Shown piece by piece: positions 1 through 44,020 of a DNA stretch of 64,000 nucleotides. The stretch is from Yuukianura sp. NJ FZ-2021. Taxonomy: Eukaryota. Position numbers and translations under genes: made by a program. Below the pieces are notes generated by a model. That model saw only the letters and a program-made list of their open reading frames with translations, did not search any database and was not told the origin of the DNA. Numbering within the stretch: position 1 is the first letter of the stretch; each line of letters opens with the position of its first letter. The DNA is taken from positions 4,526,001 through 4,590,000 of the forward strand of contig CM102285.1 in the NCBI GenBank assembly GCA_046563655.1, read 5' to 3'.

Positions 1-270
1 TCAACGTAATTTTGAAGAGAGTGAGAACTGTCCAGAGCTCAATCTGTACATCTTGATGGAAGCGGTTTTTTTAACACTTTAAAAACGTTTTCAAACGGTT
101 CATTATCATCTTGGTGCAATTCGTGCACAAAAACGCCATCCGCACTTAAAATTTTGAGCAACGTTTCAGTGTATGAATCTGGGGAAAACGGTTTCTCTCG
201 TTTGGTCGTATCCATTGTCTACTCCTCCAGAAGACCTATGCTCAACCCTTGAGCATCGCCCTACCTTGTT
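1..270 (+). mobile_element. 3' part of HINE/DINE-1-like non-autonomous element (copy 0, cut by window edge)
   Basis: Matches the 3' end of the complete copies, ending CTCCAGAAGACC-TATGCTCAACCCTTGAGCAT-CGCCCTACCTTGTT. Confidence 0.85.
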
Positions 271-1363
271 TAATCGGAAAGCGAACCGCTTGCACCACCT
301 CACTAGCGCATAGACCACGGTGGCTTTGATTACGTTAAAATTTTTGCGGCAAACAACAACTAATGCATAGCGTCAACTTCCTATGCGCGATACAGTGACA
401 AATAAGCATCCCGATTGAATTGTTAAAACGTCTTCACATTTTTCGCATTTTTAATCGGAAAGCGAACCGCTTGCACCACTTCACTAGCGCATAGACCACG
501 GTGGCTTTGATTACGTTAAAAATTTTTGCGGCAAACAACAACTAATGCATAGCGTCAACTTCCTATGCGCGATACAGTGACAAATATGCATCCCGATTGA
601 ATTGTTAAAACGTCTTCACATTTTTCGCATTTTTAATCGGAAAGCGAACCGCTTGCACCACTTCACTAGCGCATAGACCACGGTGGCTTTGATTACGTTA
701 AAAAAATTTTGCGGCAAACAACAACTAATGCATAGCGTCAACTTCCTATGCGCGATACAGTGACAAATAAGCATCCCGATTGAATTGTTAAAACGTCTTC
801 ACATTTTTCGCATTTTTAATCGGAAAGCGAACCGCTTGCACCACTTCACTAGCGCATAGACCACGGTGGCTTTGAATACGTTAAAATTTTTGCGGCAAAC
901 AACAACTAATGCACAGCGTCAACTTCCTATGCGCGATACAGTGACAAATATGCATCCCGATTGAATTGTTAAAACGTCTTCACATTTTTCGCATTTTTAA
1001 TCGGAAAGCGAACCGCTTGCACCACTTCACTAGCGCATAGACCACGGTGGCTTTGAATACGTTAAAAAATTTTTGCGGCAAACAACAACTAATGCATAGC
1101 GTCAACTTCCTATGCGCGATACAGTGACAAATATGCATCCCGATTGAATTGTTAAAACGTCTTCACATTTTTCGCATTTTTAATCGGAAAGCGAACCGCT
1201 TGCACCACTTCACTAGCGCATAGACCACGGTGGCTTTGATTACGTTAAAAAATTTTTGCGGCAAACAACAACTAATGCATAGCGTCAACTTCCTATGCGC
1301 GATACAGTGACAAATAAGCATCCCGATTGAATTGTTAAAACGTCTTCACATTTTTCGCATTTT

Positions 1364-2604
1364 AGTCTTCTGGAGACGCACGTCTACGACGTGCTGAAGA
1401 AGACTATTGATACGACTTTGTCTGTCTGTCCGTCCGTCCGTTCGCTTTTTTAGTATCTTTTGCACTGAAACATAAGCCCCATCGCAGTCGGGGGGTTATG
1501 TTTGGCTCAAGTATTTTCATTAGTTCTACATTGCACTCAAAGTCTTACATTAACAACGCACAAAGTTTGCCTCTGCATCGCGTTACTGTTTCTTAAGTCC
1601 TCAAAATTTTTGCGTTAGGTCTGCATTATACTCAAAATATTTATTAACAACGAAGTTTTGATCTGGTCATTTTCTGGCAGTTAGTTTAATTACGTTGTTA
1701 AATTAAGCCAAATTAGAGGGTAGAAATTCCGGCTTAAATTCGTAATACGTAAACAGTGCCTTGTAGGGTTCAAAGTTCCTTTCTCAATAATTTTGATCAT
1801 AAACAAGGGATATTCGAGTTTATAACTTATGCACTTAATTTAACACATGGTGCATTTATTTGAACCGATTTTGATTTTATAGAAGTTATATTCGATGCCT
1901 ACTCCTCAACGTTCAATTTTGATCAATTTGAACAACGAAGTTTTGATCTTCTCATTTTCTGACATTATGTTTAGTTACGTTGTTAAATTAAGACTGATTA
2001 GAGGGTAGAAAATCCGGCTTAAATGATTATTATGTGAATTATGAAGACAGGGGTCAAATTTGCATTTACTAGATATTTTTATAATTTCGATTTTAATTTT
2101 GTGCATGATGCAAACTTATTGCACATGATTGTAAAATTGTGCAGTTATTTTGACGCTGGGTAATGGACGTTGTCATGACAACACTGGCAATGAATTACGT
2201 GCGGGTTGTTTAAGTTAGTTTCAACGTTCAATTTTGTGCATGTTACACATTTGTGTGCAGTCAATTTCACGCCCGGTAATGGACTTTGTTATTTCAAAAT
2301 TTGTGCATACTAGAGAACAATAATGTATTGTGCATCAACGTAATTTTGAAGAGAGTGAGAACTGTCCAGAGCTCAATCTGTACATCTTGATGGAAGCGGT
2401 TTTTTTAACACTTTAAAAACGTTTTCAAACGGTTCATTATCATCTTGGTGCAATTCGTGCACAAAAACGCCATCCGCACTTAAAATTTTGAGCAACGTTT
2501 CAGTGTATGAATCTGGGGAAAACGGTTTCTCTCGTTTGGTCGTATCCATTGTCTACTCCTCCAGAAGACCTATGCTCAACCCTTGAGCATCGCCCTACCT
2601 TGTT
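1364..2604 (+). mobile_element. HINE/DINE-1-like non-autonomous element, copy 1 (~1241 bp)
   Basis: 5' subterminal repeat AGTCTTCTGGAG with a nearby inverted partner (AGAAGACT) around hairpin GCACGTC-TAC-GACGTGC, then a (TGTC/CGTC)n microsatellite. 3' inverted subTIR CTCCAGAAGAC and 3' hairpin ATGCTCAA-CCC-TTGAGCAT. Inserted in a T run with no long TSD and no ORF. Confidence 0.85.
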
Positions 2605-3877
2605 TAATCGGAAAGCGAACCGCTTGCACCACTTCACTAGCGCATAGACCACGGTGGCTTTGATTACGTTAAAATTTTTGCGGCAAACAACAACTAATGC
2701 ATAGCGTCAACTTCCTATGCGCGATACAGTGACAAATAAGCATCCCGATTGAATTGTTAAAACGTCTTCACATTTTTCGCATTTTTAATCGGAAAGCGAA
2801 CCGCTTGCACCACTTCACTAGCGCATAGACCACGGTGGCTTTGATTACGTTAAAAATTTTTGCGGCAAACAACAACTAATGCATAGCGTCAACTTCCTAT
2901 GCGCGATACAGTGACAAATATGCATCCCGATTGAATTGTTAAAACGTCTTCACATTTTTCGCATTTTTAATCGGAAAGCGAACCGCTTGCACCACTTCAC
3001 TAGCGCATAGACCACGGTGGCTTTGATTACGTTAAAAAATTTTTGCGGCAAACAACAACTAATGCATAGCGTCAACTTCCTATGCGCGATACAGTGACAA
3101 ATAAGCATCCCGATTGAATTGTTAAAACGTCTTCACATTTTTCGCATTTTTAATCGGAAAGCGAACCGCTTGCACCACTTCACTAGCGCATAGACCACGG
3201 TGGCTTTGATTACGTTAAAATTTTTGCGGCAAACAACAACTAATGCATAGCGTCAACTTCCTATGCGCGATACAGTGACAAATATGCATCCCGATTGAAT
3301 TGTTAAAACGTCTTCACATTTTTCGCATTTTTAATCGGAAAGCGAACCGCTTGCACCACTTCACTAGCGCATAGACCACGGTGGCTTTGATTACGTTAAA
3401 ATTTTTGCGGCAAACAACAACTAATGCACAGCGTCAACTTCCTATGCGCGATACAGTGACAAATATGCATCCCGATTGAATTGTTAAAACGTCTTCACAT
3501 TTTTCGCATTTTTAATCGGAAAGCGAACCGCTTGCACCACTTCACTAGCGCATAGACCACGGTGGCTTTGATTACGTTAAAAAATTTTTGGGGCAAACAA
3601 CAACTAATGCATAGCGTCAACTTCCTATGCGCGATACAGTGACAAATATGCATCCCGATTGAATTGTTAAAACGTCTTCACATTTTTCGCATTTTTAATC
3701 GGAAAGCGAACCGCTTGCACCACTTCACTAGCGCATAGACCACGGTGGCTTTGATTACGTTAAAAAATTTTGCGGCAAACAACAACTAATGCATAGCGTC
3801 AACTTCCTATGCGCGATACAGTGACAAATAAGCATCCCGATTGAATTGTTAAAACGTCTTCACATTTTTCGCATTTT

Positions 3878-5119
3878 AGTCTTCTGGAGACGCACGTCTA
3901 CGACGTGCTGAAGAAGACTATTGATACGACTTTGTCTGTCTGTCCGTCCGTCCGTTCGCTTTTTTAGTATCTTTTGCACTGAAACATAAGCCCCATCGCA
4001 GTCGGGGGGTTATGTTTGGCTCAAGTATTTTCATTAGTTCTACATTGCACTCAAAGTCTTACATTAACAACGCACAAAGTTTGCCTCTGCATCGCGTTAC
4101 TGTTTCTTAAGTCCTCAAAATTTTTGCGTTAGGTCTGCATTATACTCAAAATATTTATTAACAACGAAGTTTTGATCTGGTCATTTTCTGGCAGTTAGTT
4201 TAATTACGTTGTTAAATTAAGCCAAATTAGAGGGTAGAAATTCCGGCTTAAATTCGTAATACGTAAACAGTGCCTTGTAGGGTTCAAAGTTCCTTTCTCA
4301 ATAATTTTGATCATAAACAAGGGATATTCGAGTTTATAACTTATGCACTTAATTTAACACATGGTGCATTTATTTGAACCGATTTTGATTTTATAGAAGT
4401 TACATTCGATGCCTACTCCTCAACGTTCAATTTTGATCAATTTGAACAACGAAGTTTTGATCTTCTCATTTTCTGACATTATGTTTAGTTACGTTGTTAA
4501 ATTAAGACTGATTAGAGGGTAGAAAATCCGGCTTAAATGATTATTATGTGAATTATGAAGACAGGGGTCAAATTTGCATTTACTAGATATTTTTATAATT
4601 TCGATTTTAATTTTGTGCATGATGCAAACTTATTGCACATGATTGTAAAATTGTGCAGTTATTTTGACGCTGGGTAATGGACGTTGTCATGACAACACTG
4701 GCAATGAATTACGTGCGGGTTGTTTAAGTTAGTTTCAACGTTCAATTTTGTGCATGTTACACATTTGTGTGCAGTCAATTTCACGCCCGGTAATGGACTT
4801 TGTTATTTCAAAATTTGTGCATACTAGAGAACAATAATGTATTGTGCATCAACGTAATTTTGAAGAGAGTGAGAACTGTTCAGAGCTCAATCTGTACATT
4901 TTGATGGAAGCGGTTTTTTTTAACATTTTAAAAACGTTTTCAAACGGTTCATTATCATCTTGGTGCAATTCGTGCACAAAAAGGCCATCCGCACTTAAAA
5001 TTTTGAGCAACGTTTCAGTGTATGAATCTGGGGAAAACGGTTTCTCTCGTTTGGTCGTATCCATTGTCTACTCCTCCAGAAGACCTATGCTCAACCCTTG
5101 AGCATCGCCCTACCTTGTT
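3878..5119 (+). mobile_element. HINE-like element, copy 2
   Basis: Near-identical to copy 1, with the same junctions (GCATTTT|AGTC ... CTTGTT|TAATCGG). Confidence 0.85.
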
Positions 5120-7669
5120 TAATCGGAAAGCGAACCGCTTGCACCACTTCACTAGCGCATAGACCACGGTGGCTTTGATTACGTTAAAATTTTTGCGGCA
5201 AACAACAACTAATGCACAGCGTCAACTTCCTATGCGCGATACAGTGACAAATCTGCATCCCGATTGAATTGTTAAAACGTCTTCACATTTTTCGCATTTT
5301 TAATCGGAAAGCGAACCGCTTGCACCACTTCACTAGCGCATAGACCACGGTGGCTTTGAATACGTTAAAAAATTTTTGCGGCAAACAACAACTAATGCAT
5401 AGCGTCAACTTCCTATGCGCGATACAGTGACAAATAAGCATCCCGATTGAATTGTTAAAACGTCTTCACATTTTTCGCATTTTTAATCGGAAAGCGAACC
5501 GCTTGCACCACTTCACTAGCGCATAGAACACGGTGGCTTTGATTACGTTAAAAATTTTTGCGGCAAACAACAACTAATGCATAGCGTCAACTTCCTATGC
5601 GCGATACAGTGACAAATATGCATCCCGATTGAATTGTTAAAACGTCTTCACATTTTTCGCATTTTTAATCGGAAAGCGAACCGCTTGCACCACTTCACTA
5701 GCGCATAGACCACGGTGGCTTTGATTACGTTAAAAAATTTTGCGGCAAACAACAACTAATGCATAGCGTCAACTTCCTATGCGCGATACAGTGACAAATA
5801 AGCATCCCGATTGAATTGTTAAAACGTCTTCACATTTTTCGCATTTTTAATCGGAAAGCGAACCGCTTGCACCACTTCACTAGCGCATAGACCACGGTGG
5901 CTTTGATTACGTTAAAATTTTTGCGGCAAACAACAACTAATGCATAGCGTCAACTTCCTATGCGCGATACAGTGACAAATATGCATCCCGATTGAATTGT
6001 TAAAACGTCTTCACATTTTTCGCATTTTTAATCGGAAAGCGAACCGCTTGCACCACTTCACTAGCGCATAGACCACGGTGGCTTTGATTACGTTAAAATT
6101 TTTGCGGCAAACAACAACTAATGCACAGCGTCAACTTCCTATGCGCGATACAGTGACAAATATGCATCCCGATTGAATTGTTAAAACGTCTTCACATTTT
6201 TCGCATTTTTAATCGGAAAGCGAACCGCTTGCACCACTTCACTAGCGCATAGACCACGGTGGCTTTGATTACGTTAAAAAATTTTTGGGGCAAACAACAA
6301 CTAATGCATAGCGTCAACTTCCTATGCGCGATACAGTGACAAATATGCATCCCGATTGAATTGTTAAAACGTCTTCACATTTTTCGCATTTTTAATCGGA
6401 AAGCGAACCGCTTGCACCACTTCACTAGCGCATAGACCACGGTGGCTTTGATTACGTTAAAAATTTTTGCGGCAAACAACAACTAATGCATAGCGTCAAC
6501 TTCCTATGCGCGATACAGTGACAAATATGCATCCCGATTGAATTGTTAAAACGTCTTCACATTTTTCGCATTTTTAATCGGAAAGCGAACCGCTTGCACC
6601 ACTTCACTAGCGCATAGACCACGGTGGCTTTGAATACGTTAAAAAATTTTTGCGGCAAACAACAACTAATGCATAGCGTCAACTTCCTATGCGCGATACA
6701 GTGACAAATATGCATCCCGATTGAATTGTTAAAACGTCTTCACATTTTTCGCATTTTTAATCGGAAAGCGAACCGCTTGCACCACTTCACTAGCGCATAG
6801 ACAACGGTGGCTTTGATTACGTTAAAAATTTTTGCGGCAAACAACAACTAATGCATAGCGTCAACTTCCTATGCGGGATACAGTGACAAATATGCATCCC
6901 GATTGAATTGTTAAAACGTCTTCACATTTTTCGTATTTTTAATCGGAAAGCGAACCGCTTGCACCACTTCACTAGCGCATAGACCACGGTGGCTTTGATT
7001 ACGTTAAAAATTTTTGCGGCAAACAACAAGTAATGCATAGCGTCAACTTCCTATGCGCGATACAGTGACAAATATGCATCCCGATTGAATTGTTAAAACG
7101 TCTTCACATTTTTCGCATTTTTAATCGGAAAGCGAACCGCTTGCACCACTTCACTAGCGCATAGACCACGGTGGCTTTGATTACGTTAAAAATTTTTGCG
7201 GCAAACAACAACTAATGCATAGCGTCAACTTCCTATGCGCGATACAGTGACAAATATGCATCCCGATTGAATTGTTAAAACGTCTTCACATTTTTCGCAT
7301 TTTTAATCGGAAAGCGAACCGCTTGCACCACTTCACTAGCGCATAGACCACGGTGGCTTTGAATACGTTAAAAAATTTTTGCGGCAAACAACAACTAATG
7401 CATAGCGTCAACTTCCTATGCGCGATACAGTGACAAATATGCATCCCGATTGAATTGTTAAAACGTCTTCACATTTTTCGCATTTTTAATCGGAAAGCGA
7501 ACCGCTTGCACCACTTCACTAGCGCATAGACCACGGTGGCTTTGATTACGTTAAAAAATTTTTGCGGCAAACAACAACTAATGCATAGCGTCAACTTCCT
7601 ATGCGCGATACAGTGACAAATAAGCATCCCGATTGAATTGTTAAAACGTCTTCACATTTTTCGCATTTT

Positions 7670-8911
7670 AGTCTTCTGGAGACGCACGTCTACGACGTGC
7701 TGAAGAAGACTATTGATACGACTTTGTCTGTCTGTCCGTCCGTCCGTTCGCTTTTTTAGTATCTTTTGCACTGAAACATAAGCCCCATCGCAGTCGGGGG
7801 GTTATGTTTGGCTCAAGTATTTTCATTAGTTCTACATTGCACTCAAAGTCTTACATTAACAACGCACAAAGTTTGCCTCTGCATCGCGTTACTGTTTCTT
7901 AAGTCCTCAAAATTTTTGCGTTAGGTCTGCATTATACTCAAAATATTTATTAACAACGAAGTTTTGATCTGGTCATTTTCTGGCAGTTAGTTTAATTACG
8001 TTGTTAAATTAAGCCAAATTAGAGGGTAGAAATTCCGGCTTAAATTCGTAATACGTAAACAGTGCCTTGTAGGGTTCAAAGTTCCTTTCTCAATAATTTT
8101 GATCATAAACAAGGGATATTCGAGTTTATAACTTATGCACTTAATTTAACACATGGTGCATTTATTTGAACCGATTTTGATTTTATAGAAGTTACATTCG
8201 ATGCCTACTCCTCAACGTTCAATTTTGATCAATTTGAACAACGAAGTTTTGATCTTCTCATTTTCTGACATTATGTTTAGTTACGTTGTTAAATTAAGAC
8301 TGATTAGAGGGTAGAAAATCCGGCTTAAATGATTATTATGTGAATTATGAAGACAGGGGTCAAATTTGCATTTACTAGATATTTTTATAATTTCGATTTT
8401 AATTTTGTGCATGATGCAAACTTATTGCACATGATTGTAAAATTGTGCAGTTATTTTGACGCTGGGTAATGGACGTTGTCATGACAACACTGGCAATGAA
8501 TTACGTGCGGGTTGTTTAAGTTAGTTTCAACGTTCAATTTTGTGCATGTTACACATTTGTGTGCAGTCAATTTCACGCCCGGTAATGGACTTTGTTATTT
8601 CAAAATTTGTGCATACTAGAGAACAATAATGTATTGTGCATCAACGTAATTTTGAAGAGAGTGAGAACTGTTCAGAGCTCAATCTGTACATTTTGATGGA
8701 AGCGGTTTTTTTTAACATTTTAAAAACGTTTTCAAACGGTTCATTATCATCTTGGTGCAATTCGTGCACAAAAAGGCCATCCGCACTTAAAATTTTGAGC
8801 AACGTTTCAGTGTATGAATCTGGGGAAAACGGTTTCTCTCGTTTGGTCGTATCCATTGTCTACTCCTCCAGAAGACCTATGCTCAACCCTTGAGCATCGC
8901 CCTACCTTGTT
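7670..8911 (+). mobile_element. HINE-like element, copy 3
   Basis: Near-identical to copy 2, same junctions. Confidence 0.85.
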
Positions 8912-9637
8912 TAATCGGAAAGCGAACCGCTTGCACCACTTCACTAGCGCATAGACCACGGTGGCTTTGATTACGTTAAAATTTTTGCGGCAAACAACAA
9001 CTAATGCATACGTCAACTTCCTATGCGCGATACAGTGACAAATATGCATCCCGATTGAATTGTTAAAACGTCTTCACATTTTTCGCATTTTTAATCGGAA
9101 AGCGAACCGCTTGCACCACTTCACTAGCGCATAGACCACGGTGGCTTTGATTACGTTAAAATTTTTGCGGCAAACAACAACTAATGCACAGCGTCAACTT
9201 CCTATGCGCGATACAGTGACAAATATGCATCCCGATTGAATTGTTAAAACGTCTTCACATTTTTCGCATTTTTAATCGGAAAGCGAACCGCTTGCACCAC
9301 TTCACTAGCGCATAGACCACGGTGGCTTTGATTACGTTAAAAAATTTTTGGGGCAAACAACAACTAATGCATAGCGTCAACTTCCTATGCGCGATACAGT
9401 GACAAATATGCATCCCGATTGAATTGTTAAAACGTCTTCACATTTTTCGCATTTTTAATCGGAAAGCGAACCGCTTGCACCACTTCACTAGCGCATAGAC
9501 CACGGTGGCTTTGATTACGTTAAAAAATTTTGCGGCAAACAACAACTAATGCATAGCGTCAACTTCCTATGCGCGATACAGTGACAAATAAGCATCCCGA
9601 TTGAATTGTTAAAACGTCTTCACATTTTTCGCATTTT

Positions 9638-10878
9638 AGTCTTCTGGAGACGCACGTCTACGACGTGCTGAAGAAGACTATTGATACGACTTTGTCTGTC
9701 TGTCCGTCCGTCCGTTCGCTTTTTTAGTATCTTTTGCACTGAAACATAAGCCCCATCGCAGTCGGGGGGTTATGTTTGGCTCAAGTATTTTCATTAGTTC
9801 TACATTGCACTCAAAGTCTTACATTAACAACGCACAAAGTTTGCCTCTGCATCGCGTTACTGTTTCTTAAGTCCTCAAAATTTTTGCGTTAGGTCTGCAT
9901 TATACTCAAAATATTTATTAACAACGAAGTTTTGATCTGGTCATTTTCTGGCAGTTAGTTTAATTACGTTGTTAAATTAAGCCAAATTAGAGGGTAGAAA
10001 TTCCGGCTTAAATTCGTAATACGTAAACAGTGCCTTGTAGGGTTCAAAGTTCCTTTCTCAATAATTTTGATCATAAACAAGGGATATTCGAGTTTATAAC
10101 TTATGCACTTAATTTAACACATGGTGCATTTATTTGAACCGATTTTGATTTTATAGAAGTTACATTCGATGCCTACTCCTCAACGTTCAATTTTGATCAA
10201 TTTGAACAACGAAGTTTTGATCTTCTCATTTTCTGACATTATGTTTAGTTACGTTGTTAAATTAAGACTGATTAGAGGGTAGAAAATCCGGCTTAAATGA
10301 TTATTATGTGAATTATGAAGACAGGGGTCAAATTTGCATTTACTAGATATTTTTATAATTTCGATTTTAATTTTGTGCATGATGCAAACTTATTGCACAT
10401 GATTGTAAAATTGTGCAGTTATTTTGACGCTGGGTAATGGACGTTGTCATGACAACACTGGCAATGAATTACGTGCGGGTTGTTTAAGTTAGTTTCAACG
10501 TTCAATTTTGTGCATGTTACACATTTGTGTGCAGTCAATTTCACGCCCGGTAATGGACTTTGTTATTTCAAAATTTGTGCATACTAGAGAACAATAATGT
10601 ATTGTGCATCAACGTAATTTTGAAGAGAGTGAGAACTGTTCAGAGCTCAATCTGTACATTTTGATGGAAGCGGTTTTTTTAACATTTTAAAAACGTTTTC
10701 AAACGGTTCATTATCATCTTGGTGCAATTCGTGCACAAAAAGGCCATCCGCACTTAAAATTTTGAGCAACGTTTCAGTGTATGAATCTGGGGAAAACGGT
10801 TTCTCTCGTTTGGTCGTATCCATTGTCTACTCCTCCAGAAGACCTATGCTCAACCCTTGAGCATCGCCCTACCTTGTT
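9638..10878 (+). mobile_element. HINE-like element, copy 4
   Basis: Near-identical to copy 2, same junctions. Confidence 0.85.
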
Positions 10879-13246
10879 TAATCGGAAAGCGAACCGCTTG
10901 CACCACTTCACTAGCGCATAGACCACGGTGGCTTTGATTACGTTAAAATTTTTGCGGCAAACAACAACTAATGCATAGCGTCAACTTCCTATGCGCGATA
11001 CAGTGACAAATAAGCATCCCGATTGAATTGTTAAAACGTCTTCACATTTTTCGCATTTTTAATCGGAAAGCGAACCGCTTGCACCACTTCACTAGCGCAT
11101 AGAACACGGTGGCTTTGATTACGTTAAAAATTTTTGCGGCAAACAACAACTAATGCATAGCGTCAACTTCCTATGCGCGATACAGTGACAAATATGCATC
11201 CCGATTGAATTGTTAAAACGTCTTCACATTTTTCGCATTTTTAATCGGAAAGCGAACCGCTTGCACCACTTCACTAGCGCATAGACCACGGTGGCTTTGA
11301 TTACGTTAAAAAAATTTTGCGGCAAACAACAACTAATGCATAGCGTCAACTTCCTATGCGCGATACAGTGACAAATAAGCATCCCGATTGAATTGTTAAA
11401 ACGTCTTCACATTTTTCGCATTTTTAATCGGAAAGCGAACCGCTTGCACCACTTCACTAGCGCATAGACCACGGTGGCTTTGATTACGTTAAAATTTTTG
11501 CGGCAAACAACAACTAATGCATAGCGTCAACTTCCTATGCGCGATACAGTGACAAATATGCATCCCGATTGAATTGTTAAAACGTCTTCACATTTTTCGC
11601 ATTTTTAATCGGAAAGCGAACCGCTTGCACCACTTCACTAGCGCATAGACCACGGTGGCTTTGATTACGTTAAAATTTTTGCGGCAAACAACAACTAATG
11701 CACAGCGTCAACTTCCTATGCGCGATACAGTGACAAATATGCATCCCGATTGAATTGTTAAAACGTCTTCACATTTTTCGCATTTTTAATCGGAAAGCGA
11801 ACCGCTTGCACCACTTCACTAGCGCATAGACCACGGTGGCTTTGATTACGTTAAAAAATTTTTGGGGCAAACAACAACTAATGCATAGCGTCAACTTCCT
11901 ATGCGCGATACAGTGACAAATATGCATCCCGATTGAATTGTTAAAACGTCTTCACATTTTTCGCATTTTTAATCGGAAAGCGAACCGCTTGCACCACTTC
12001 ACTAGCGCATAGACCACGGTGGCTTTGATTACGTTAAAAATTTTTGCGGCAAACAACAACTAATGCATAGCGTCAACTTCCTATGCGCGATACAGTGACA
12101 AATATGCATCCCGATTGAATTGTTAAAACGTCTTCACATTTTTCGCATTTTTAATCGGAAAGCGAACCGCTTGCACCACTTCACTAGCGCATAGACCACG
12201 GTGGCTTTGAATACGTTAAAAAATTTTTGCGGCAAACAACAACTAATGCATAGCGTCAACTTCCTATGCGCGATACAGTGACAAATATGCATCCCGATTG
12301 AATTGTTAAAACGTCTTCACATTTTTCGCATTTTTAATCGGAAAGCGAACCGCTTGCACCACTTCACTAGCGCATAGACAACGGTGGCTTTGATTACGTT
12401 AAAAATTTTTGCGGCAAACAACAACTAATGCATAGCGTCAACTTCCTATGCGGGATACAGTGACAAATATGCACCCCGATTGAATTGTTAAAACGTCTTC
12501 ACATTTTTCGTATTTTTAATCGGAAAGCGAACCGCTTGCACCACTTCACTAGCGCATAGACCACGGTGGCTTTGATTACGTTAAAAATTTTTGCGGCAAA
12601 CAACAAGTAATGCATAGCGTCAACTTCCTATGCGCGATACAGTGACAAATATGCATCCCGATTGAATTGTTAAAACGTCTTCACATTTTTCGCATTTTTA
12701 ATCGGAAAGCGAACCGCTTGCACCACTTCACTAGCGCATAGACCACGGTGGCTTTGATGACGTTAAAAATTTTTGCGGCAAACAACAACTAATGCATAGC
12801 GTCAACTTCCTATGCGCGATACAGTGACAAATATGCATCCCGATTGAATTGTTAAAACGTCTTCACATTTTTCGCATTTTTAATCGGAAAGCGAACCGCT
12901 TGCACCACTTCACTAGCGCATAGACCACGGTGGCTTTGAATACGTTAAAAAATTTTTGCGGCAAACAACAACTAATGCATAGCGTCAACTTCCTATGCGC
13001 GATACAGTGACAAATATGCATCCCGATTGAATTGTTAAAACGTCTTCACATTTTTCGCATTTTTAATCGGAAAGCGAACCGCTTGCACCACTTCACTAGC
13101 GCATAGACCACGGTGGCTTTGATTACGTTAAAAAATTTTTGCGGCAAACAACAACTAATGCATAGCGTCAACTTCCTATGCGCGATACAGTGACAAATAA
13201 GCATCCCGATTGAATTGTTAAAACGTCTTCACATTTTTCGCATTTT

Positions 13247-14487
13247 AGTCTTCTGGAGACGCACGTCTACGACGTGCTGAAGAAGACTATTGATACGACT
13301 TTGTCTGTCTGTCCGTCCGTCCGTTCGCTTTTTTAGTATCTTTTGCACTGAAACATAAGCCCCATCGCAGTCGGGGGGTTATGTTTGGCTCAAGTATTTT
13401 CATTAGTTCTACATTGCACTCAAAGTCTTACATTAACAACGCACAAAGTTTGCCTCTGCATCGCGTTACTGTTTCTTAAGTCCTCAAAATTTTTGCGTTA
13501 GGTCTGCATTATACTCAAAATATTTATTAACAACGAAGTTTTGATCTGGTCATTTTCTGGCAGTTAGTTTAATTACGTTGTTAAATTAAGCCAAATTAGA
13601 GGGTAGAAATTCCGGCTTAAATTCGTAATACGTAAACAGTGCCTTGTAGGGTTCAAAGTTCCTTTCTCAATAATTTTGATCATAAACAAGGGATATTCGA
13701 GTTTATAACTTATGCACTTAATTTAACACATGGTGCATTTATTTGAACCGATTTTGATTTTATAGAAGTTACATTCGATGCCTACTCCTCAACGTTCAAT
13801 TTTGATCAATTTGAACAACGAAGTTTTGATCTTCTCATTTTCTGACATTATGTTTAGTTACGTTGTTAAATTAAGACTGATTAGAGGGTAGAAAATCCGG
13901 CTTAAATGATTATTATGTGAATTATGAAGACAGGGGTCAAATTTGCATTTACTAGATATTTTTATAATTTCGATTTTAATTTTGTGCATGATGCAAACTT
14001 ATTGCACATGATTGTAAAATTGTGCAGTTATTTTGACGCTGGGTAATGGACGTTGTCATGACAACACTGGCAATGAATTACGTGCGGGTTGTTTAAGTTA
14101 GTTTCAACGTTCAATTTTGTGCATGTTACACATTTGTGTGCAGTCAATTTCACGCCCGGTAATGGACTTTGTTATTTCAAAATTTGTGCATACTAGAGAA
14201 CAATAATGTATTGTGCATCAACGTAATTTTGAAGAGAGTGAGAACTGTTCAGAGCTCAATCTGTACATTTTGATGGAAGCGGTTTTTTTAACATTTTAAA
14301 AACGTTTTCAAACGGTTCATTATCATCTTGGTGCAATTCGTGCACAAAAAGGCCATCCGCACTTAAAATTTTGAGCAACGTTTCAGTGTATGAATCTGGG
14401 GAAAACGGTTTCTCTCGTTTGGTCGTATCCATTGTCTACTCCTCCAGAAGACCTATGCTCAACCCTTGAGCATCGCCCTACCTTGTT
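13247..14487 (+). mobile_element. HINE-like element, copy 5
   Basis: Near-identical to copy 4, same junctions. Confidence 0.85.
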
Positions 14488-17218
14488 TAATCGGAAAGCG
14501 AACCGCTTGCACCACTTCACTAGCGCATAGACCACGGTGGCTTTGATTACGTTAAAATTTTTGCGGCAAACAACAACTAATGCATAGCGTCAACTTCCTA
14601 CGCGCGATACAGTGACAAATAAGCATCCCGATTGAATTGTTAAAACGTCTTCACATTTTTCGCATTTTTAATCGGAAAGCGAACCGCTTGCACCACTTCA
14701 CTAGCGCATAGACCACGGTGGCTTTGATTACGTTAAAATTTTTGCGGCAAACAACAACTAATGCACAGCGTCAACTTCCTATGCGCGATACAGTGACAAA
14801 TATGCATCCCGATTGAATTGTTAAAACGTCTTCACATTTTTCGCATTTTTAATCGGAAAGCGAACCGCTTGCACCACTTCACTAGCGCATAGACCACGGT
14901 GGCTTTGATTACGTTAAAATTTTTTTGCGGCAAACAACAACTAATGCATAGCGTCAACTTCCTATGCGCGATACAGTGACAAATATGCATCCCGATTGAA
15001 TTGTTAAAACGTCTTCACATTTTTCGCATTTTTAATCGGAAAGCGAACCGCTTGCACCACTTCACTAGCGCATAGACCACGGTGGCTTTGAATACGTTAA
15101 AAAATTTTTGCGGCAAACAACAACTAATGCATAGCGTCAACTTCCTATGCGCGATACAGTGACAAATATGCATCCCGATTGAATTGTTAAAACGTCTTCA
15201 CATTTTTCGCATTTTTAATCGGAAAGCGAACCGCTTGCGCCACTTCACTAGCGCATAGACCACGGTGGCTTTGATTACGTTAAAAATTTTTGCGGCAAAC
15301 AACAACTAATGCATAGCGTCAACTTCCTATGCGCGATACAGTGACAAATATGCATCCCGATTGAATTGTTAAAACGTCTTCACATTTTTCGCATTTTTAA
15401 TCGGAAAGCGAACCGCTTGCACCACTTCACTAGCGCATAGACCACGGTGGCTTTGAATACGTTAAAAAATTTTTGCGGCAAACAACAACTAATGCATAGC
15501 GTCAACTTCCTATGCGCGATACAGTGACAAATATGCATCCCGATTGAATTGTTAAAACGTCTTCACATTTTTCGCATTTTTAATCGGAAAGCGAACCGCT
15601 TGCACCACTTCACTAGCGCATAGACCACGGTGGCTTTGATTACGTTAAAAATTTTTGCGGCAAACAACAACTAATGCATAGCGTCAACTTCCTATGCGCG
15701 ATACAGTGACAAATATGCATCCCGATTGAATTGTTAAAACGTCTTCACATTTTTCGCATTTTTAATCGGAAAGCGAACCGCTTGCACCACTTTACTAGCG
15801 CATAGACCACGGTGGCTTTGACTACGTTAAAATTTTTGCGGCAAACAACAACTAATGCACAGCGTCAACTTCCTATGCGCGATACAGTGACAAATATGCA
15901 TCCCGATTGAATTGTTAAAACGTCTTCACATTTTTCGCATTTTTAATCGGAAAGCGAACCGCTTGCACCACTTCACTAGCGCATAGACCACGGTGGCTTT
16001 GATTACGTTAAAATTTTTGCGGCAAACAACAACTAATGCATAGCGTCAACTTCCTATGCGCGATACAGTGACAAATATGCATCCCGATTGAATTGTTAAA
16101 ACGTCTTCACATTTTTCGCATTTTTAATCGGAAAGCGAACCGCTTGCACCACTTCACTAGGGCATAGACCACGGTGGCTTTGATTACGTTAAAAATTTTT
16201 GCGGCAAACAACAACTAATGCATAGCGTCAACTTCCTATGCGCGATACAGTGACAAATATGCATCCCGATTGAATTGTTAAAACGTCTTCACATTTTTCG
16301 CATTTTTAATCGGAAAGCGAACCGCTTGCACCACTTCACTAGCGCATAGACCACGGTGGCTTTGATTACGTTAAAAATTTTTGCGGCAAACAACAACTAA
16401 TGCATAGCGTCAACTTCCTATGCGGGATACAGTGACAAATATGCATCCCGATTGAATTGTTAAAACGTCTTCACATTTTTCGTATTTTTAATCGGAAAGC
16501 GAACCGCTTGCACCACTTCACTAGCGCATAGACCACGGTGGCTTTGATTACGTTAAAAATTTTTGCGGCAAACAACAAGTAATGCATAGCGTCAACTTCC
16601 TATGCGCGATACAGTGACAAATATGCATCCCGATTGAATTGTTAAAACGTCTTCACATTTTTCGCATTTTTAATCGGAAAGCGAACCGCTTGCACCACTT
16701 CACTAGCGCATAGACCACGGTGGCTTTGATTACGTTAAAAATTTTTGCGGCAAACAACAACTAATGCATAGCGTCAACTTCCTATGCGCGATACAGTGAC
16801 AAATATGCATCCCGATTGAATTGTTAAAACGTCTTCACATTTTTCGCATTTTTAATCGGAAAGCGAACCGCTTGCACCACTTCACTAGCGCATAGACCAC
16901 GGTGGCTTTGAATACGTTAAAAAATTTTTGCGGCAAACAACAACTAATGCATAGCGTCAACTTCCTATGCGCGATACAGTGACAAATATGCATCCCGATT
17001 GAATTGTTAAAACGTCTTCACATTTTTCGCATTTTTAATCGGAAAGCGAACCGCTTGCACCACTTCACTAGCGCATAGACCACGGTGGCTTTGATTACGT
17101 TAAAAAATTTTTGCGGCAAACAACAACTAATGCATAGCGTCAACTTCCTATGCGCGATACAGTGACAAATAAGCATCCCGATTGAATTGTTAAAACGTCT
17201 TCACATTTTTCGCATTTT

Positions 17219-18459
17219 AGTCTTCTGGAGACGCACGTCTACGACGTGCTGAAGAAGACTATTGATACGACTTTGTCTGTCTGTCCGTCCGTCCGTTCGC
17301 TTTTTTAGTATCTTTTGCACTGAAACATAAGCCCCATCGCAGTCGGGGGGTTATGTTTGGCTCAAGTATTTTCATTAGTTCTACATTGCACTCAAAGTCT
17401 TACATTAACAACGCACAAAGTTTGCCTCTGCATCGCGTTACTGTTTCTTAAGTCCTCAAAATTTTTGCGTTAGGTCTGCATTATACTCAAAATATTTATT
17501 AACAACGAAGTTTTGATCTGGTCATTTTCTGGCAGTTAGTTTAATTACGTTGTTAAATTAAGCCAAATTAGAGGGTAGAAATTCCGGCTTAAATTCGTAA
17601 TACGTAAACAGTGCCTTGTAGGGTTCAAAGTTCCTTTCTCAATAATTTTGATCATAAACAAGGGATATTCGAGTTTATAACTTATGCACTTAATTTAACA
17701 CATGGTGCATTTATTTGAACCGATTTTGATTTTATAGAAGTTATATTCGATGCCTACTCCTCAACGTTCAATTTTGATCAATTTGAACAACGAAGTTTTG
17801 ATCTTCTCATTTTCTGACATTATGTTTAGTTACGTTGTTAAATTAAGACTGATTAGAGGGTAGAAAATCCGGCTTAAATGATTATTATGTGAATTATGAA
17901 GACAGGGGTCAAATTTGCATTTACTAGATATTTTTATAATTTCGATTTTAATTTTGTGCATGATGCAAACTTATTGCACATGATTGTAAAATTGTGCAGT
18001 TATTTTGACGCTGGGTAATGGACGTTGTCATGACAACACTGGCAATGAATTACGTGCGGGTTGTTTAAGTTAGTTTCAACGTTCAATTTTGTGCATGTTA
18101 CACATTTGTGTGCAGTCAATTTCACGCCCGGTAATGGACTTTGTTATTTCAAAATTTGTGCATACTAGAGAACAATAATGTATTGTGCATCAACGTAATT
18201 TTGAAGAGAGTGAGAACTGTTCAGAGCTCAATCTGTACATTTTGATGGAAGCGGTTTTTTTAACATTTTAAAAACGTTTTCAAACGGTTCATTATCATCT
18301 TGGTGCAATTCGTGCACAAAAAGGCCATCCGCACTTAAAATTTTGAGCAACGTTTCAGTGTATGAATCTGGGGAAAACGGTTTCTCTCGTTTGGTCGTAT
18401 CCATTGTCTACTCCTCCAGAAGACCTATGCTCAACCCTTGAGCATCGCCCTACCTTGTT
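17219..18459 (+). mobile_element. HINE-like element, copy 6 (last in the array)
   Basis: Near-identical to the other copies, same junctions. Confidence 0.85.
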
Positions 18460-21400
18460 TAATCGGAAAGCGAACCGCTTGCACCACTTCACTAGCGCAT
18501 AGACCACGGTGGCTTTGATTACGTTAAAATTTTTGCGGCAAACAACAACTAATGCATAGCGTCAACTTCCTACGCGCGATACAGTGACAAATAAGCATCC
18601 CGATTGAATTGTTAAAACGTCTTCACATTTTTCGCATTTTTAATCGGAAAGCGAACCGCTTGCACCACTTCACTAGCGCATAGACCACGGTGGCTTTGAT
18701 TACGTTAAAATTTTTGCGGCAAACAACAACTAATGCACAGCGTCAACTTCCTATGCGCGATACAGTGACAAATATGCATCCCGATTGAATTGTTAAAACG
18801 TCTTCACATTTTTCGCATTTTTAATCGGAAAGCGAACCGCTTGCACCACTTCACTAGCGCATAGACCACGGTGGCTTTGATTACGTTAAAATTTTTGCGG
18901 CAAACAACAACTAATGCATAGCGTCAACTTCCTATGCGCGATACAGTGACAAATATGCATCCCGATTGAATTGTTAAAACGTCTTCACATTTTTCGCATT
19001 TTTAATCGGAAAGCGAACCGCTTGCACCACTTCACTAGCGCATAGACCACGGTGGCTTTGAATACGTTAAAAAATTTTTGCGGCAAACAACAACTAATGC
19101 ATAGCGTCAACTTCCTATGCGCGATACAGTGACAAATATGCATCCCGATTGAATTGTTAAAACGTCTTCACATTTTTCGCATTTTTAATCGGAAAGCGAA
19201 CCGCTTGCGCCACTTCACTAGCGCATAGACCACGGTGGCTTTGATTACGTTAAAAATTTTTGCGGCAAACAACAACTAATGCATAGCGTCAACTTCCTAT
19301 GCGCGATACAGTGACAAATATGCATCCCGATTGAATTGTTAAAACGTCTTCACATTTTTCGCATTTTTAATCGGAAAGCGAACCGCTTGCACCACTTCAC
19401 TAGCGCATAGACCACGGTGGCTTTGAATACGTTAAAAAATTTTTGCGGCAAACAACAACTAATGCATAGCGTCAACTTCCTATGCGCGATACAGTGACAA
19501 ATATGCATCCCGATTGAATTGTTAAAACGTCTTCACATTTTTCGCATTTTTAATCGGAAAGCGAACCGCTTGCACCACTTCACTAGCGCATAGACCACGG
19601 TGGCTTTGATTACGTTAAAAATTTTTGCGGCAAACAACAACTAATGCATAGCGTCAACTTCCTATGCGCGATACAGTGACAAATATGCATCCCGATTGAA
19701 TTGTTAAAACGTCTTCACATTTTTCGCATTTTTAATCGGAAAGCGAACCGCTTGCACCACTTTACTAGCGCATAGACCACGGTGGCTTTGACTACGTTAA
19801 AATTTTTGCGGCAAACAACAACTAATGCACAGCGTCAACTTCCTATGCGCGATACAGTGACAAATATGCATCCCGATTGAATTGTTAAAACGTCTTCACA
19901 TTTTTCGCATTTTTAATCGGAAAGCGAACCGCTTGCACCACTTCACTAGCGCATAGACCACGGTGGCTTTGATTACGTTAAAATTTTTGCGGCAAACAAC
20001 AACTAATGCATAGCGTCAACTTCCTATGCGCGATACAGTGACAAATATGCATCCCGATTGAATTGTTAAAACGTCTTCACATTTTTCGCATTTTTAATCG
20101 GAAAGCGAACCGCTTGCACCACTTCACTAGGGCATAGACCACGGTGGCTTTGATTACGTTAAAAATTTTTGCGGCAAACAACAACTAATGCATAGCGTCA
20201 ACTTCCTATGCGCGATACAGTGACAAATATGCATCCCGATTGAATTGTTAAAACGTCTTCACATTTTTCGCATTTTTAATCGGAAAGCGAACCGCTTGCA
20301 CCACTTCACTAGCGCATAGACCACGGTGGCTTTGAATACGTTAAAAAATTTTTGCGGCAAACAACAACTAATGCATAGCGTCAACTTCCTATGCGCGATA
20401 CAGTGACAAATATGCATCCCGATTGAATTGTTAAAACGTCTTCACATTTTTCGCATTTTTAATCGGAAAGCAAACCGCTTGCACCACTTCACTAGCGCAT
20501 AGACCACGGTGGCTTTGATTACGTTAAAAAATTTTTGCGGCAAACAACAACTAATGCATAGCGTCAACTTCCTATGCGCGATACAGTGACAAATAAGCAT
20601 CCCGATTGAATTGTTAAAACGTCTTCACATTTTTCGCATTTTTAATCGGAAAGCGAACCGCTTGCACCACTTCACTAGCGCATAGACCACGGTGGCTTTG
20701 AATACGTTAAAAAATTTTTGCGGCAAACAACAACTAATGCATAGCGTCAACTTCCTATGCGCGATACAGTGACAAATATGCATCCCGATTGAATTGTTAA
20801 AACGTCTTCACATTTTTCGCATTTTTAATCGGAAAGCAAACCGCTTGCACCACTTCACTAGCGCATAGACCACGGTGGCTTTGATTACGTTAAAAAATTT
20901 TTGCGGCAAACAACAACTAATGCATAGCGTCAACTTCCTATGCGCGATACAGTGACAAATAAGCATCCCGATTGAATTGTTAAAACGTCTTCACATTTTT
21001 CGCATTTTTAATCGGAAAGCGAACCGCTTGCACCACTTCACTAGCGCATAGACCACGGTGGCTTTGATTACGTTAAAATTTTTGCGGCAAACAACAACTA
21101 ATGCACAGCGTCAACTTCCTATGCGCGATACAGTGACAAATCTGCATCCCGATTGAATTGTTAAAACGTCTTCACATTTTTCGTATTTTTAATCGGAAAG
21201 CGAACCGCTTGCACCACTTCACTAGCGCATAGACCACGGTGGCTTTGATTACGTTAAAATTTTTGCGGCAAACAACAACTAATGCATAGCGTCAACTTCC
21301 TATGCGCGATACAGTGACAAATATGCATCCCGATTGAATTGTTAAAACGTCTTCACATTTTTCGCATTTTTAATCGGAAAGCGAACCGCTTGCACCACTT

Positions 21401-24400
21401 CACTAGCGCATAGACCACGGTGGCTTTGAATACGTTAAAAAATTTTTGCGGCAAACAACAACTAATGCATAGCGTCAACTTCCTATGCGCGATACAGTGA
21501 CAAATATGCATCCCGATTGAATTGTTAAAACGTCTTCACATTTTTCGCATTTTTAATCGGAAAGCGAACCGCTTGCGCCACTTCACTAGCGCATAGACCA
21601 CGGTGGCTTTGATTACGTTAAAAATTTTTGCGGCAAACAACAACTAATGCATAGCGTCAACTTCCTATGCGCGATACAGTGACAAATATGCATCCCGATT
21701 GAATTGTTAAAACGTCTTCACATTTTTCGCATTTTTAATCGGAAAGCGAACCGCTTGCACCACTTCACTAGCGCATAGACCACGGTGGCTTTGAATACGT
21801 TAAAAAATTTTTGCGGCAAACAACAACTAATGCATAGCGTCAACTTCCTATGCGCGATACAGTGACAAATATGCATCCCGATTGAATTGTTAAAACGTCT
21901 TCACATTTTTCGCATTTTTAATCGGAAAGCGAACCGCTTGCACCACTTCACTAGCGCATAGACCACGGTGGCTTTGATTACGTTAAAAATTTTTGCGGCA
22001 AACAACAACTAATGCATAGCGTCAACTTCCTATGCGCGATACAGTGACAAATATGCATCCCGATTGAATTGTTAAAACGTCTTCACATTTTTCGCATTTT
22101 TAATCGGAAAGCGAACCGCTTGCACCACTTTACTAGCGCATAGACCACGGTGGCTTTGACTACGTTAAAATTTTTGCGGCAAACAACAACTAATGCACAG
22201 CGTCACCTTCCTATGCGCGATACAGTGACAAATATGCATCCCGATTGAATTGTTAAAACGTCTTCACATTTTTCGCATTTTTAATCGGAAAGCGAACCGC
22301 TTGCACCACTTCACTAGCGCATAGACCACGGTGGCTTTGATTACGTTAAAATTTTTGCGGCAAACAACAACTAATGCATAGCGTCAACTTCCTATGCGCG
22401 ATACAGTGACAAATATGCATCCCGATTGAATTGTTAAAACGTCTTCACATTTTTCGCATTTTTAATCGGAAAGCGAACCGCTTGCACCACTTCACTAGGG
22501 CATAGACCACGGTGGCTTTGATTACGTTAAAAATTTTTGCGGCAAACAACAACTAATGCATAGCGTCAACTTCCTATGCGCGATACAGTGACAAATATGC
22601 ATCCCGATTGAATTGTTAAAACGTCTTCACATTTTTCGCATTTTTAATCGGAAAGCGAACCGCTTGCACCACTTCACTAGCGCATAGACCACGGTGGCTT
22701 TGAATACGTTAAAAAATTTTTGCGGCAAACAACAACTAATGCATAGCGTCAACTTCCTATGCGCGATACAGTGACAAATATGCATCCCGATTGAATTGTT
22801 AAAACGTCTTCACATTTTTCGCATTTTTAATCGGAAAGCAAACCGCTTGCACCACTTCACTAGCGCATAGACCACGGTGGCTTTGATTACGTTAAAAAAT
22901 TTTTGCGGCAAACAACAACTAATGCATAGCGTCAACTTCCTATGCGCGATACAGTGACAAATAAGCATCCCGATTGAATTGTTAAAACGTCTTCACATTT
23001 TTCGCATTTTTAATCGGAAAGCGAACCGCTTGCACCACTTCACTAGCGCATAGACCACGGTGGCTTTGAATACGTTAAAAAATTTTTGCGGCAAACAACA
23101 ACTAATGCATAGCGTCAACTTCCTATGCGCGATACAGTGACAAATATGCATCCCGATTGAATTGTTAAAACGTCTTCACATTTTTCGCATTTTTAATCGG
23201 AAAGCAAACCGCTTGCACCACTTCACTAGCGCATAGACCATGGTGGCTTTGATTACGTTAAAAAATTTTTGCGGCAAACAACAACTAATGCATAGCGTCA
23301 ACTTCCTATGCGCGATACAGTGACAAATAAGCATCCCGATTGAATTGTTAAAACGTCTTCACATTTTTCGCATTTTTAATCGGAAAGCGAACCGCTTGCA
23401 CCACTTCACTAGCGCATAGACCACGGTGGCTTTGATTACGTTAAAATTTTTGCGGCAAACAACAACTAATGCACAGCGTCAACTTCCTATGCGCGATACA
23501 GTGACAAATCTGCATCCCGATTGAATTGTTAAAACGTCTTCACATTTTTCGTATTTTTAATCGGAAAGCGAACCGCTTGCACCACTTCACTAGCGCATAG
23601 ACCACGGTGGCTTTGATTACGTTAAAATTTTTTTGCGGCAAACAACAACTAAGGCATAGCGTCAACTTCCTATGCGCGATACAGTGACAAATATGCATCC
23701 CGATTGAATTGCTAAAACGTCTTCACATTTTTCGCATTTTTAATCGGAAAGCGAACCGCTTGCACCACTTCACTAGCGCGTAGACCACGGTGGCTTTGAT
23801 TACGTTAAAAATTTTTTGCGGCAAACAACTACTAATGTATAGCGTCAACTTCCTATGCGCGATACAGTGAGAAATAAGCATTCCGATTGAATTGTTAAAA
23901 CGTCTTCACATTTTTCGCATTTTTAATCGGAAAGCGAACCGCTTGCACCACTTCACTAAGGCGTGGCTTTGATTACGTTAAAAATTTTTGCGGCAAACAA
24001 CAACTAATGCATAGCGTCAACTTCCTATGCGCGATACAGTGACAAATATGCATCCCGATTGAATTGTTAAAACGTCTTCACATTTTTCGCATTTTTAATC
24101 GGAAAGCGAACCGCTTGCACCACTTCACTAGCGCATAGACCACGGTGGCTTTGATTACGTTAAAATTTTTGCGGCAAACAACAACTAATGCACAGCGTCA
24201 ACTTCCTATGCGCGATACAGTGACAAATCTGCATCCCGATTGAATTGTTAAAACGTCTTCACATTTTTCGTATTTTTAATCGGAAAGCGAACCGCTTGCA
24301 CCACTTCACTAGCGCATAGACCACGGTGGCTTTGATTACGTTAAAAATTTTTTGCGGCAAACAACAACTAAGGCATAGCGTCAACTTCCTATGCGCGATA

Positions 24401-38340: not shown

Positions 38341-38652
38341 TCAAAATGGCAACAATGTGAGTAAAATAGTTAACATCTTTTTACCGCCTGTTGTTTGACC
38401 CATTTGACCTTGGAGGTGATTTGCTATATCGTTTTGTAAAGTAGAGGATAGACAATAAGGAAGAGAAGGTGACAGTGATTTGGTTTAACGTTATTTTGTT
38501 TCTAAACAAACTTCCAAAGGAGGACAGATAGCCACTTTATGATTTATGTCGATTAGCAACACCAGGATATTTTCTGAAGTTCCGTTTGCTTACTTTTCCA
38601 GGAACCGCATTCAAATAATTAGATAATATTTAAATTCGTGAATTTTTCCAAC

Positions 38653-40705: not shown

Positions 40706-40790
40706 AACAAGGTAGGGCGATGCTCAAGGGTTGAGCATAGGTCTTCCGGAAGGAATAGACAATTGATACGACTTAGATCGGCCAGGCGTT
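40706..40790 (-). mobile_element. 3' terminus of a related HINE-like element in reverse orientation
   Basis: The reverse complement reads GTCGTATCAATTGTCTATTCCTTCCGGAAGACCTATGCTCAACCCTTGAGCATCGCCCTACCTTGTTT, the same hairpin and tail as the array element. Confidence 0.8.
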
Positions 40791-44017: not shown

Positions 44018-44020
44018 TGT

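Follow-up and report, generated by a model that had tools for sequence, protein, structure and literature searches.

In a 64,000-nucleotide stretch of the Yuukianura sp. NJ FZ-2021 genome (GenBank assembly GCA_046563655.1, contig CM102285.1, positions 4,526,001 to 4,590,000 of the forward strand; hereafter the window), an array of a 182-bp satellite is interrupted by seven copies of a 1.24-kb element, here called E, which all occupy the same site of the satellite monomer in the same orientation. E has the anatomy of a non-autonomous Helentron-type rolling-circle transposon (HINE, DINE-1-like). The composite array probably originated from a single insertion of E at this monomer site, followed by segmental copying within the array. 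The evidence that carries this reading comes from the satellite monomers on either side of the element, which recur in the same order beside different copies.

Architecture of the composite array

Tandem Repeats Finder detects a repeat of 181-183 bp in seven stretches within 269-37929 (97-98% matches), and the gaps between the first six repeat stretches are filled by E (1239 or 1240 bp). Cutting the satellite between 269 and 37927 yields 166 monomers with lengths of 172-185 bp, 157 of which measure 181-183 bp. Exact-word scans locate six complete copies of E and one that is truncated by the window, seven out of seven on the + strand, which agrees with the initial annotation of this DNA, where same-orientation, near-identical copies of about 1.24 kb had been described at one monomer site. 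The spacings given there were likewise reproduced exactly by monomer decomposition: successive copies are separated by 6, 7, 14, 4, 13 and 15 monomers. The proposed limits of the array, 1..18459, describe its element-bearing part correctly, but they do not mark its end; position 18459 corresponds to the last element, whereas the array continues to 37927 with 107 further, E-free monomers. The order of elements (copies E0 to E6) and monomers (m1 to m166, from the decomposition and, for the last block, also from Tandem Repeats Finder) is as follows:

1..268, + strand: E0, final 268 bp of a copy truncated at the start of the window, no difference from E1 over this length
269..1363, + strand: 6 monomers, m1-m6
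1364..2602, + strand: E1, complete HINE-like element, 1239 bp
2603..3877, + strand: 7 monomers, m7-m13
3878..5117, + strand: E2, 1240 bp
5118..7669, + strand: 14 monomers, m14-m27
7670..8909, + strand: E3, 1240 bp
8910..9637, + strand: 4 monomers, m28-m31
9638..10876, + strand: E4, 1239 bp
10877..13246, + strand: 13 monomers, m32-m44
13247..14485, + strand: E5, 1239 bp
14486..17218, + strand: 15 monomers, m45-m59
17219..18457, + strand: E6, 1239 bp
18458..37927, + strand: 107 element-free monomers, m60-m166

The monomers beside the copies share more than their position. A minority variant, AAATAAGC, had been noticed in the monomer preceding every complete copy, and it is indeed present there in six out of six cases, against a background of 36/166 monomers by word count or 37/166 by alignment column. 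On the other side of the element, the monomer immediately after a copy has A4 in place of A5 at alignment column 73 in seven out of seven cases; across the whole array, this minority variant is present in 44/166 monomers. When differences are counted monomer by monomer outward from each pair of copies, the following values are obtained for successive monomers:

E3 and E5, left flank: 0,0,1,0,1,0,0,0,0,0,1,0
E5 and E6, right flank: 0,0,2,0,0,0,0,0,0,0
E2 and E4, left flank: 0,0,0,1
E1 and E4, right flank: 0,1,1,0,0,0,2
E1 against E3, E5 and E6, left flank: 0,0, then diverging

Among random pairs of monomers from m1-59, 5.3% show 0 differences and 14.7% show at most one. The ordered runs of variants beside different copies, which extend over up to 12 monomers, therefore favor one insertion with segmental amplification over repeated targeting of the same site. 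The earlier suggestion that one insertion had been absorbed into the repeat unit thus gains far stronger backing from these ordered flank haplotypes than from the single variant on which it was originally based.

The same conclusion can be approached from longer self-matches. The segment 5299-9637 matches 10877-15215 with 99.63% identity over 4342 bp, and 3149-7486 matches 8910-13246 with 99.06% identity; in these self-matches, a super-unit of about 5.6-5.8 kb, which contains two copies of E, is itself duplicated. No pair of blocks is an exact duplicate, and the best long self-matches carry 10-32 mismatches. Monomers m10-13 match m28-31, although only m28-31 directly follow a copy of E. Ordered multi-monomer blocks, with 0-1 differences per monomer as compared to the mean of 2.88 in m1-59, hence recur in the manner of a higher-order repeat, but without a fixed period: the spacings between the copies of E are all unequal, and the array is therefore better described as a patchwork of segmental duplications than as a fixed-period higher-order repeat.

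The copies of E themselves are nearly identical. Between any two complete copies, 0-5 of the 1239 aligned bases are different and no more than one 1-nt indel occurs (99.6-100% identity), and only six sites are variable among the copies in total. E0 and E1 represent a subtype that differs from E2-E6 at 4-5 sites, and the genealogy of the copies (E0/E1, then E6, then E2-E5) matches their order along the array. It was considered that E6 might be a recombinant between the subtypes, but this idea was dropped because a divergent family member elsewhere in the window, E7 (see below), serves as an outgroup and identifies the base common to E1, E6 and E7 at site 526 as ancestral. The boundaries are equally uniform: left junctions read CATTTT/AGTC in six out of six copies and right junctions CCTTG/TTTAATCGG in seven out of seven, with a constant number of four Ts on the left and three on the right. 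Runs of at least two Ts number 13 on the + strand of the monomer and 12 on its complement, and three of the + strand runs are T5, yet E only ever occupies one run.

Monomer diversity amounts to 2.88 differences per pair in the E-bearing part (m1-59) versus 5.08 in the E-free part. Being more homogeneous, the E-bearing part has therefore been amplified more recently. The E-free part (18458-37927) displays local higher-order periods of its own. In m60-98, monomers at a lag of 13 are most alike (2.92 versus about 4.8 differences), and in m99-166, lags of 12, 31 and 43 stand out. Among all monomers, divergence is highest in the last one, m166. Immediately beyond it, at the right array edge, 37928-38339 is made up of 2.1 copies of a 197-bp repeat (81% matches), which has no significant similarity to the 182-bp monomer. 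ORF (open reading frame)-bearing sequence begins at about 38.6 kb, approximately 0.7 kb beyond the end of the array at 37927, which bears on the earlier suggestion of a possibly centromeric or heterochromatic location.

Anatomy, ends and relatives of the element

The assignment of E to the HINEs, a Helentron-like identity having already been proposed in the initial annotation, is supported by a set of structures: subterminal inverted repeats (subTIRs), a 5' inverted repeat, a microsatellite, central repeats, a 3' palindrome, boundaries in T runs, and the lack of coding ORFs. E is thereby likened to HINEs by their described substructures. The features of E1, read along the element, are the following:

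1363..1406, + strand: 5' end structure, inverted repeat and inner stem
1365-1375, + strand: 5' subTIR arm, GTCTTCTGGAG, starting at the second base after the T run
1420..1441, + strand: GTCT/GTCC tetranucleotide microsatellite, read in the sequence directly after the 5' structure
1646..2038, + strand: central direct repeats, two 108-nt copies, 84% alike, 285 bp apart
2559-2569, + strand: 3' subTIR arm, CTCCAGAAGAC
2559..2602, + strand: 3' end structure, comprising subTIR arm, hairpin and terminus

The two subTIR arms (1365-1375 with 2559-2569) are 11 nt long and 100% complementary, and a distance of 33 nt separates the end of the 3' arm from the last non-T base (36 nt if the three Ts are counted). 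At the 5' end, a 9-bp inverted repeat pairs 1363-1371 with 1398-1406 and encloses a 7-bp stem (1378-1384 with 1388-1394). This structure folds as DNA with -12.2 kcal/mol (z -5.0), which none of 200 shuffled sequences equaled, and the same fold is present in the solo copy E7. The 3' hairpin (2572-2590; 8-bp stem, 3-nt loop) lies 12 nt from the last non-T base and has been kept in E7 as well as in a minus-strand fragment at 40708-40782. Additional short direct repeats extend from the central region to 2297. The coding capacity of E is small: the longest ORF starting with ATG encodes 71 amino acids, and five ORFs reach at least 40. The two longest ORFs of E match no Pfam family at E-values up to 1, no Rfam family matches anywhere in the window, and an ORF for the Rep-helicase-endonuclease of an autonomous Helentron is not among the ORFs of the 64,000 nt.

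HINE/DINE-1 elements are described with subTIRs of 12-15 bp and a 3' palindrome located 8-35 bp from the end; they target TT or T-rich DNA, and the boundary Ts belong to the element, while the target site is otherwise unaltered (Thomas et al., 2014; PMC4067079). In the Pacific oyster, Cg_HINE has a subTIR of 11-12 bp with a complementary inverted repeat, mostly a tetranucleotide microsatellite, and a palindrome following the 3' subTIR (Vojvoda Zeljko et al., 2020; PMC7492417). E resembles these elements in its 11-nt subTIR pair, the inverted repeat complementary to the 5' subTIR and the tetranucleotide microsatellite, and further in its central repeats, a palindrome located 12 nt from the 3' end, insertion into a T-rich target with T runs at the boundaries, and the absence of an ORF. 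It departs from them in the spacer between subTIR and inverted repeat, which measures 26 nt in E compared to 3-22 nt in DINE-1 and 1-12 nt in the oyster, and, with respect to mite HINE families, in the position of the 3' subTIR, which ends 33-36 nt from the end of E instead of about 38-60 nt.

A search for solo copies had been suggested, and the window does contain one, which supports the ends of the element. E7 and the sites that bear on it are:

41245..42378, + strand: E7, divergent solo family member, 1134 bp, identified by exact-word scan and comparison
42707..42725, + strand: paralogous empty site of E7 in the next 334-bp unit, T5 at 42714-42718, read in the sequence
43054-43058, + strand: T5 of a second paralogous empty site of E7, read in the sequence
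40708..40782, minus strand: 65-75-bp 3'-terminal fragment of the E family with subTIR, hairpin and terminus

The E family is thus represented at three independent loci within the window. The identity of E7 to E2 amounts to 83% in the first 571 bp and to 95% in the last 63 bp; elsewhere E7 is divergent, but its termini (the first ~60 and the last 63 bases) are the same as in E. Its host is a different tandem array with a 334-bp unit, which is itself made of 49-bp sub-repeats. In this array, the empty site GATATATTTTTAGCACC corresponds to TATTTT, followed by E7 and TTTAGCACC, when occupied; in the 182-bp satellite, the uninterrupted junction CGCATTTTTAATCGG corresponds to CATTTT, followed by E and TTTAATCGG. 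At two independent sites, an A-T5-A run of the empty paralogues is hence replaced by T4, the element and T3, with the target otherwise unchanged. The two extra Ts may be borne by the element, or they may reflect a duplication of TT. Because the solo copy and its paralogous empty sites fix the termini, the ends of E are real transposon ends.

Two further observations concern E7 and its surroundings. In its interior, a pair of 32-nt inverted repeats (42041-42072 and 42227-42258, 97%) encloses about 150 bp, and this insert (42041-42258) looks like a nested miniature inverted-repeat element and partly explains the difference between E7 and E. The 334-bp array (40800-44017; 4.9 units at 91% according to Tandem Repeats Finder) is interrupted by E7; its left neighbor is the minus-strand fragment of the E family, and its right neighbor is a second HINE-like element, which adjoins the array with its 3' end.

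Public sequencing data provide a view beyond the window. Five runs from two studies, all of them DNA or presumed DNA, cover part of 1182-2790, and four of these were mapped; RNA runs covering part of this interval are not listed. Contigs of four runs (X1-X3 from organism A, X4 from organism B) cover E. Beside the element, the contigs continue in many different ways, namely from 2557/2558 inside the 3' end and, in X4, from 1360 upstream of the 5' end. The summed word depth of the contigs, which is not a copy number, is far higher over both termini of E than over its interior. Such an excess fits many family members with conserved ends, and the E family looks abundant. In X4, the bins of the satellite were left without coverage, an observation that is not drawn on here. 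One X1 contig, in which 1361 is joined to 2604 with 29 letters on the shorter side, was set aside as simply the uninterrupted monomer junction. A scan of metagenomes with the 3' terminus of E (33 nt) returned 0 matches, and a scan with the 5' terminus (20 nt) returned two, both in GC-rich contigs, which are attributed to chance because only a 20-mer is shared.

Origin of the array

The reading that appears probable, i.e., a single insertion of E at the monomer site and subsequent segmental copying within the array, might be pictured as follows. The 182-bp satellite, unrelated to E, would have been in place before E inserted once at a monomer boundary, into its A-T5-A run; the monomer on the left would have carried the AAATAAGC variant and the one on the right the A4 variant. 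At this locus, the element would then have ceased to behave as a transposon and become a passenger of the array. Out-of-register homologous exchange or gene conversion, presumably the same process that builds higher-order repeats, could have copied blocks consisting of monomers and E, and further unequal exchanges might have altered the spacing of the copies to 4-15 monomers. The outcome would be an irregular composite repeat of about 2-4 kb, including the duplicated super-unit with two copies of E. The anatomy of E, its ends, the empty sites, the common flank haplotypes and the near-identity of the copies are observed directly, and one insertion event, exchange as the copying process, and breakpoints in or beside E are inferred. 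The simplest reading is that such turnover of the array is neutral or selfish, with no function implied.

The uniform position of the copies could also be explained by an active HINE with a strong preference for the exact monomer site, which would have struck the array seven or more times independently. Such behavior would be in line with the preference of HINEs for T-rich targets and TT (Thomas et al., 2014; PMC4067079), with the same A-T5-A context used by solo E7 in an unrelated array, and with the many family members with different continuations in contigs of the four public runs. However, repeated insertion does not account for the ordered sets of 4-12 near-identical monomers that flank different copies, nor for the restriction of all copies to one strand and to a single T run among the 13 + 12 available per monomer. 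Identity among the copies is 99.6-100%, compared with 83% for E7, the sole other full-length member of the family within the window, and all 107 E-free monomers are unoccupied even though their consensus keeps the same T5 junction. Seven independent hits are therefore regarded as very improbable. Another scenario, in which one or few real copies were multiplied by mis-assembly of the satellite region, has to be considered since near-identical inserts of kb scale make the assembly of satellite arrays difficult and the structure is taken from the assembly alone. Yet exact duplicates of blocks are missing, the best long self-matches being 99.06-99.63% identical with 10-32 mismatches; no two spacings are equal, the subtypes of the copies are nested, and private changes occur in some of the monomers. 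Such a pattern looks like the result of evolution and is unlike a collapsed or expanded graph path. An assembly artefact of this kind is very improbable.

The relationship between element and satellite might also be reversed, with the satellite as a product or cargo of the transposon, either as an expanded internal repeat of a HINE, or with E and satellite blocks multiplied together by rolling-circle end-bypass or composite transposition. HINEs often hold satellite-like central repeats that are able to expand into satellites (PMC7492417; PMC12628747; PMC13553610), tandem arrays of Helitrons generated via terminator bypass have been described (PMC4067079), and the 334-bp array in the window is bordered on both sides by HINE pieces. 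But the 182-bp array lies outside the element ends that are fixed by E7, the order being 3' end, array, 5' end, and the junction between uninterrupted monomers represents the empty site precisely. A satellite borne by a HINE would be located between the 5' and 3' modules and related to the central repeats, neither of which was found for this array; and where terminator bypass would leave elements abutting head to tail, 4-15 monomers lie between all neighboring copies. Moreover, the duplicated blocks are not bounded by E on both sides (m10-13 versus m28-31), and from the array edge at 37927 to the minus-strand fragment at 40708 there is no E-like sequence. The monomer also lacks similarity to E: a monomer dimer compared to E2 and E7 by sensitive blastn gave best E-values of 0.16-0.18, and the 334-bp and 197-bp units gave nothing better than an E-value of 0.016 against E. 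The 182-bp monomer, the 197-bp edge repeat and the 334-bp unit were consequently rejected as derivatives of E (all blastn E-values at least 0.016). The 182-bp satellite is not derived from E, and an origin of the composite array as transposon cargo or product is, on the whole, quite unlikely.

Several observations weigh against a single insertion with segmental copying. Both flanks are shared by only one pair of copies, E5/E6. In other pairs the similarity is one-sided and stops at E, on the left only for E3/E5 and E2/E4, and on the right only for E1/E4; one-sided similarity needs extra exchanges, or else breakpoints within E, which would fit. The multi-copy structure is seen in the assembly only, the public contigs being short, with none of those listed spanning the stretch. 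The window begins inside a copy, so that the structure of the array further left is outside the view. As both independent sites have the A-T5-A target, some preference for such sites is real, and the E family looks abundant; strictly speaking, the monomer site could have been hit independently a second time. Finally, exchange, gene conversion and reintegration of an amplified circle are indistinguishable from one haplotype.

Beyond single insertion and segmental copying, E, with its 1.24 kb of perfect homology, could have a more active part as a preferred site of exchange, which is conceivable but rather doubtful. The E-bearing block would in this case be the youngest and most homogeneous one, a composite satellite of kb scale that replaces the 182-bp satellite, and the A-T5-A preference would make tandem arrays recurrent landing pads for the family. 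The difference in monomer diversity (2.88 versus 5.08), the one-sided flanks that stop at E, and the shared target context would fit this possibility. Two different tandem arrays have been hit by the E family within 42 kb.

Comparison with known systems and other features of the window

The ingredients of the composite array have already been published: the structure of HINEs and their targeting of TT, their links to satellites, and post-integration copying of transposons in satellite arrays. In Arabidopsis, five duplications of ATHILA elements or solo long terminal repeats (LTRs) have been reported within CEN180 arrays, which the authors attribute either to gene conversion or to the mechanism that generates higher-order repeats (Naish et al., 2021, preprint; 10.1101/2021.05.30.446350). 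As is proposed for E, a transposon inserted in an array was copied on the same chromosome together with the array. However, ATHILA is an LTR retrotransposon of about 11 kb, with the five duplicated cases 8.9-538 kb apart, whereas E is a non-autonomous, rolling-circle-type element of 1.24 kb with at least seven copies 2-4 kb apart, which form a quasi-regular composite repeat.

A second parallel is the R1 array in Drosophila ribosomal DNA, where unequal exchange organizes transposon-bearing tandem units (McGurk and Barbash, 2018; PMC5932611). Both R1 and E occupy one fixed position within a tandemly repeated unit, with expansion by unequal exchange (proposed here for E) and with variants that are ordered into higher-order repeats. 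Unlike E, R1 is truly site-specific, and its tandem arose from a double insertion, while the flank haplotypes of E point to one insertion. Satellites that stem from internal repeats of Helentrons, with DINE-TR1/154TR in D. virilis, the montium group and PERI as described cases (PMC13553610; PMC12628747), resemble the present array in that a Helentron-type element is physically interleaved with a satellite. DINE-TR1-type satellites derive from the central repeats of the element, however, whereas the 182-bp satellite is unrelated to E and lies outside of it. A full-text literature search with words from the element and satellite sequences found no paper in which they appear, which is a weak negative given that sequences are seldom printed in text.

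The array combines a Helentron-type element with an interleaved satellite of other origin, and E acts as a 1.24-kb marker that makes duplication and unequal-exchange events of the satellite readable block by block. As the satellite was not generated by E, caution is advised against assuming that every association between a HINE and a satellite reflects the expansion of element repeats. If the array were centromeric, or if exchange were concentrated in E, the arrangement would bear on the origin of composite centromeric repeats. As the evidence stands, the array contributes one more case without establishing a principle, and can be seen as a well-resolved though ordinary example of satellite reshuffling.

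Further features were recorded in the remainder of the window. Directly adjoining the satellite array, two overlapping ORFs on the minus strand (38630-39911) encode hydrophobic, membrane-protein-like sequences, whose sole match is a weak one to HlyIII/PAQR below the cut-off (E 0.0059, 16.7 bits versus a cut-off of 26.2). The second HINE-like element next to the 334-bp array (44020-45150, minus strand) is unrelated to E. It contains a pair of 16-nt inverted repeats (44050-44065 and 45122-45137, 94%), whose 5' arm is palindromic in itself and forms a hairpin. A (GTCT)n/(GTCC) microsatellite (45062-45105) and a central minisatellite of 21-28 bp of the GTGACAGGTGACACCCGGCA type (44193-44674) are also present, and a small palindrome, AACCGGTT, is situated close to the 3' end of the element. 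On the minus strand, 56143-57981 encodes a cysteine-rich protein of 612 amino acids in a single ORF with EB modules (Pfam PF01683, E 1.5e-21). Among 2587 candidates, one homologue with 51% identity was found for this protein, and its neighbors in the protein atlas are only arthropod or nematode EB-domain clusters with scores below 0.9. An ORF of 355 amino acids at 50867-51934 (+ strand) contains an EGF_3 domain. At 46913-48382 (+ strand), an open frame of 489 amino acids consists almost entirely of a 48-bp repeat (27.3 copies, 94% matches) and encodes a mucin-like sequence rich in Pro, Thr, Glu and Ala.

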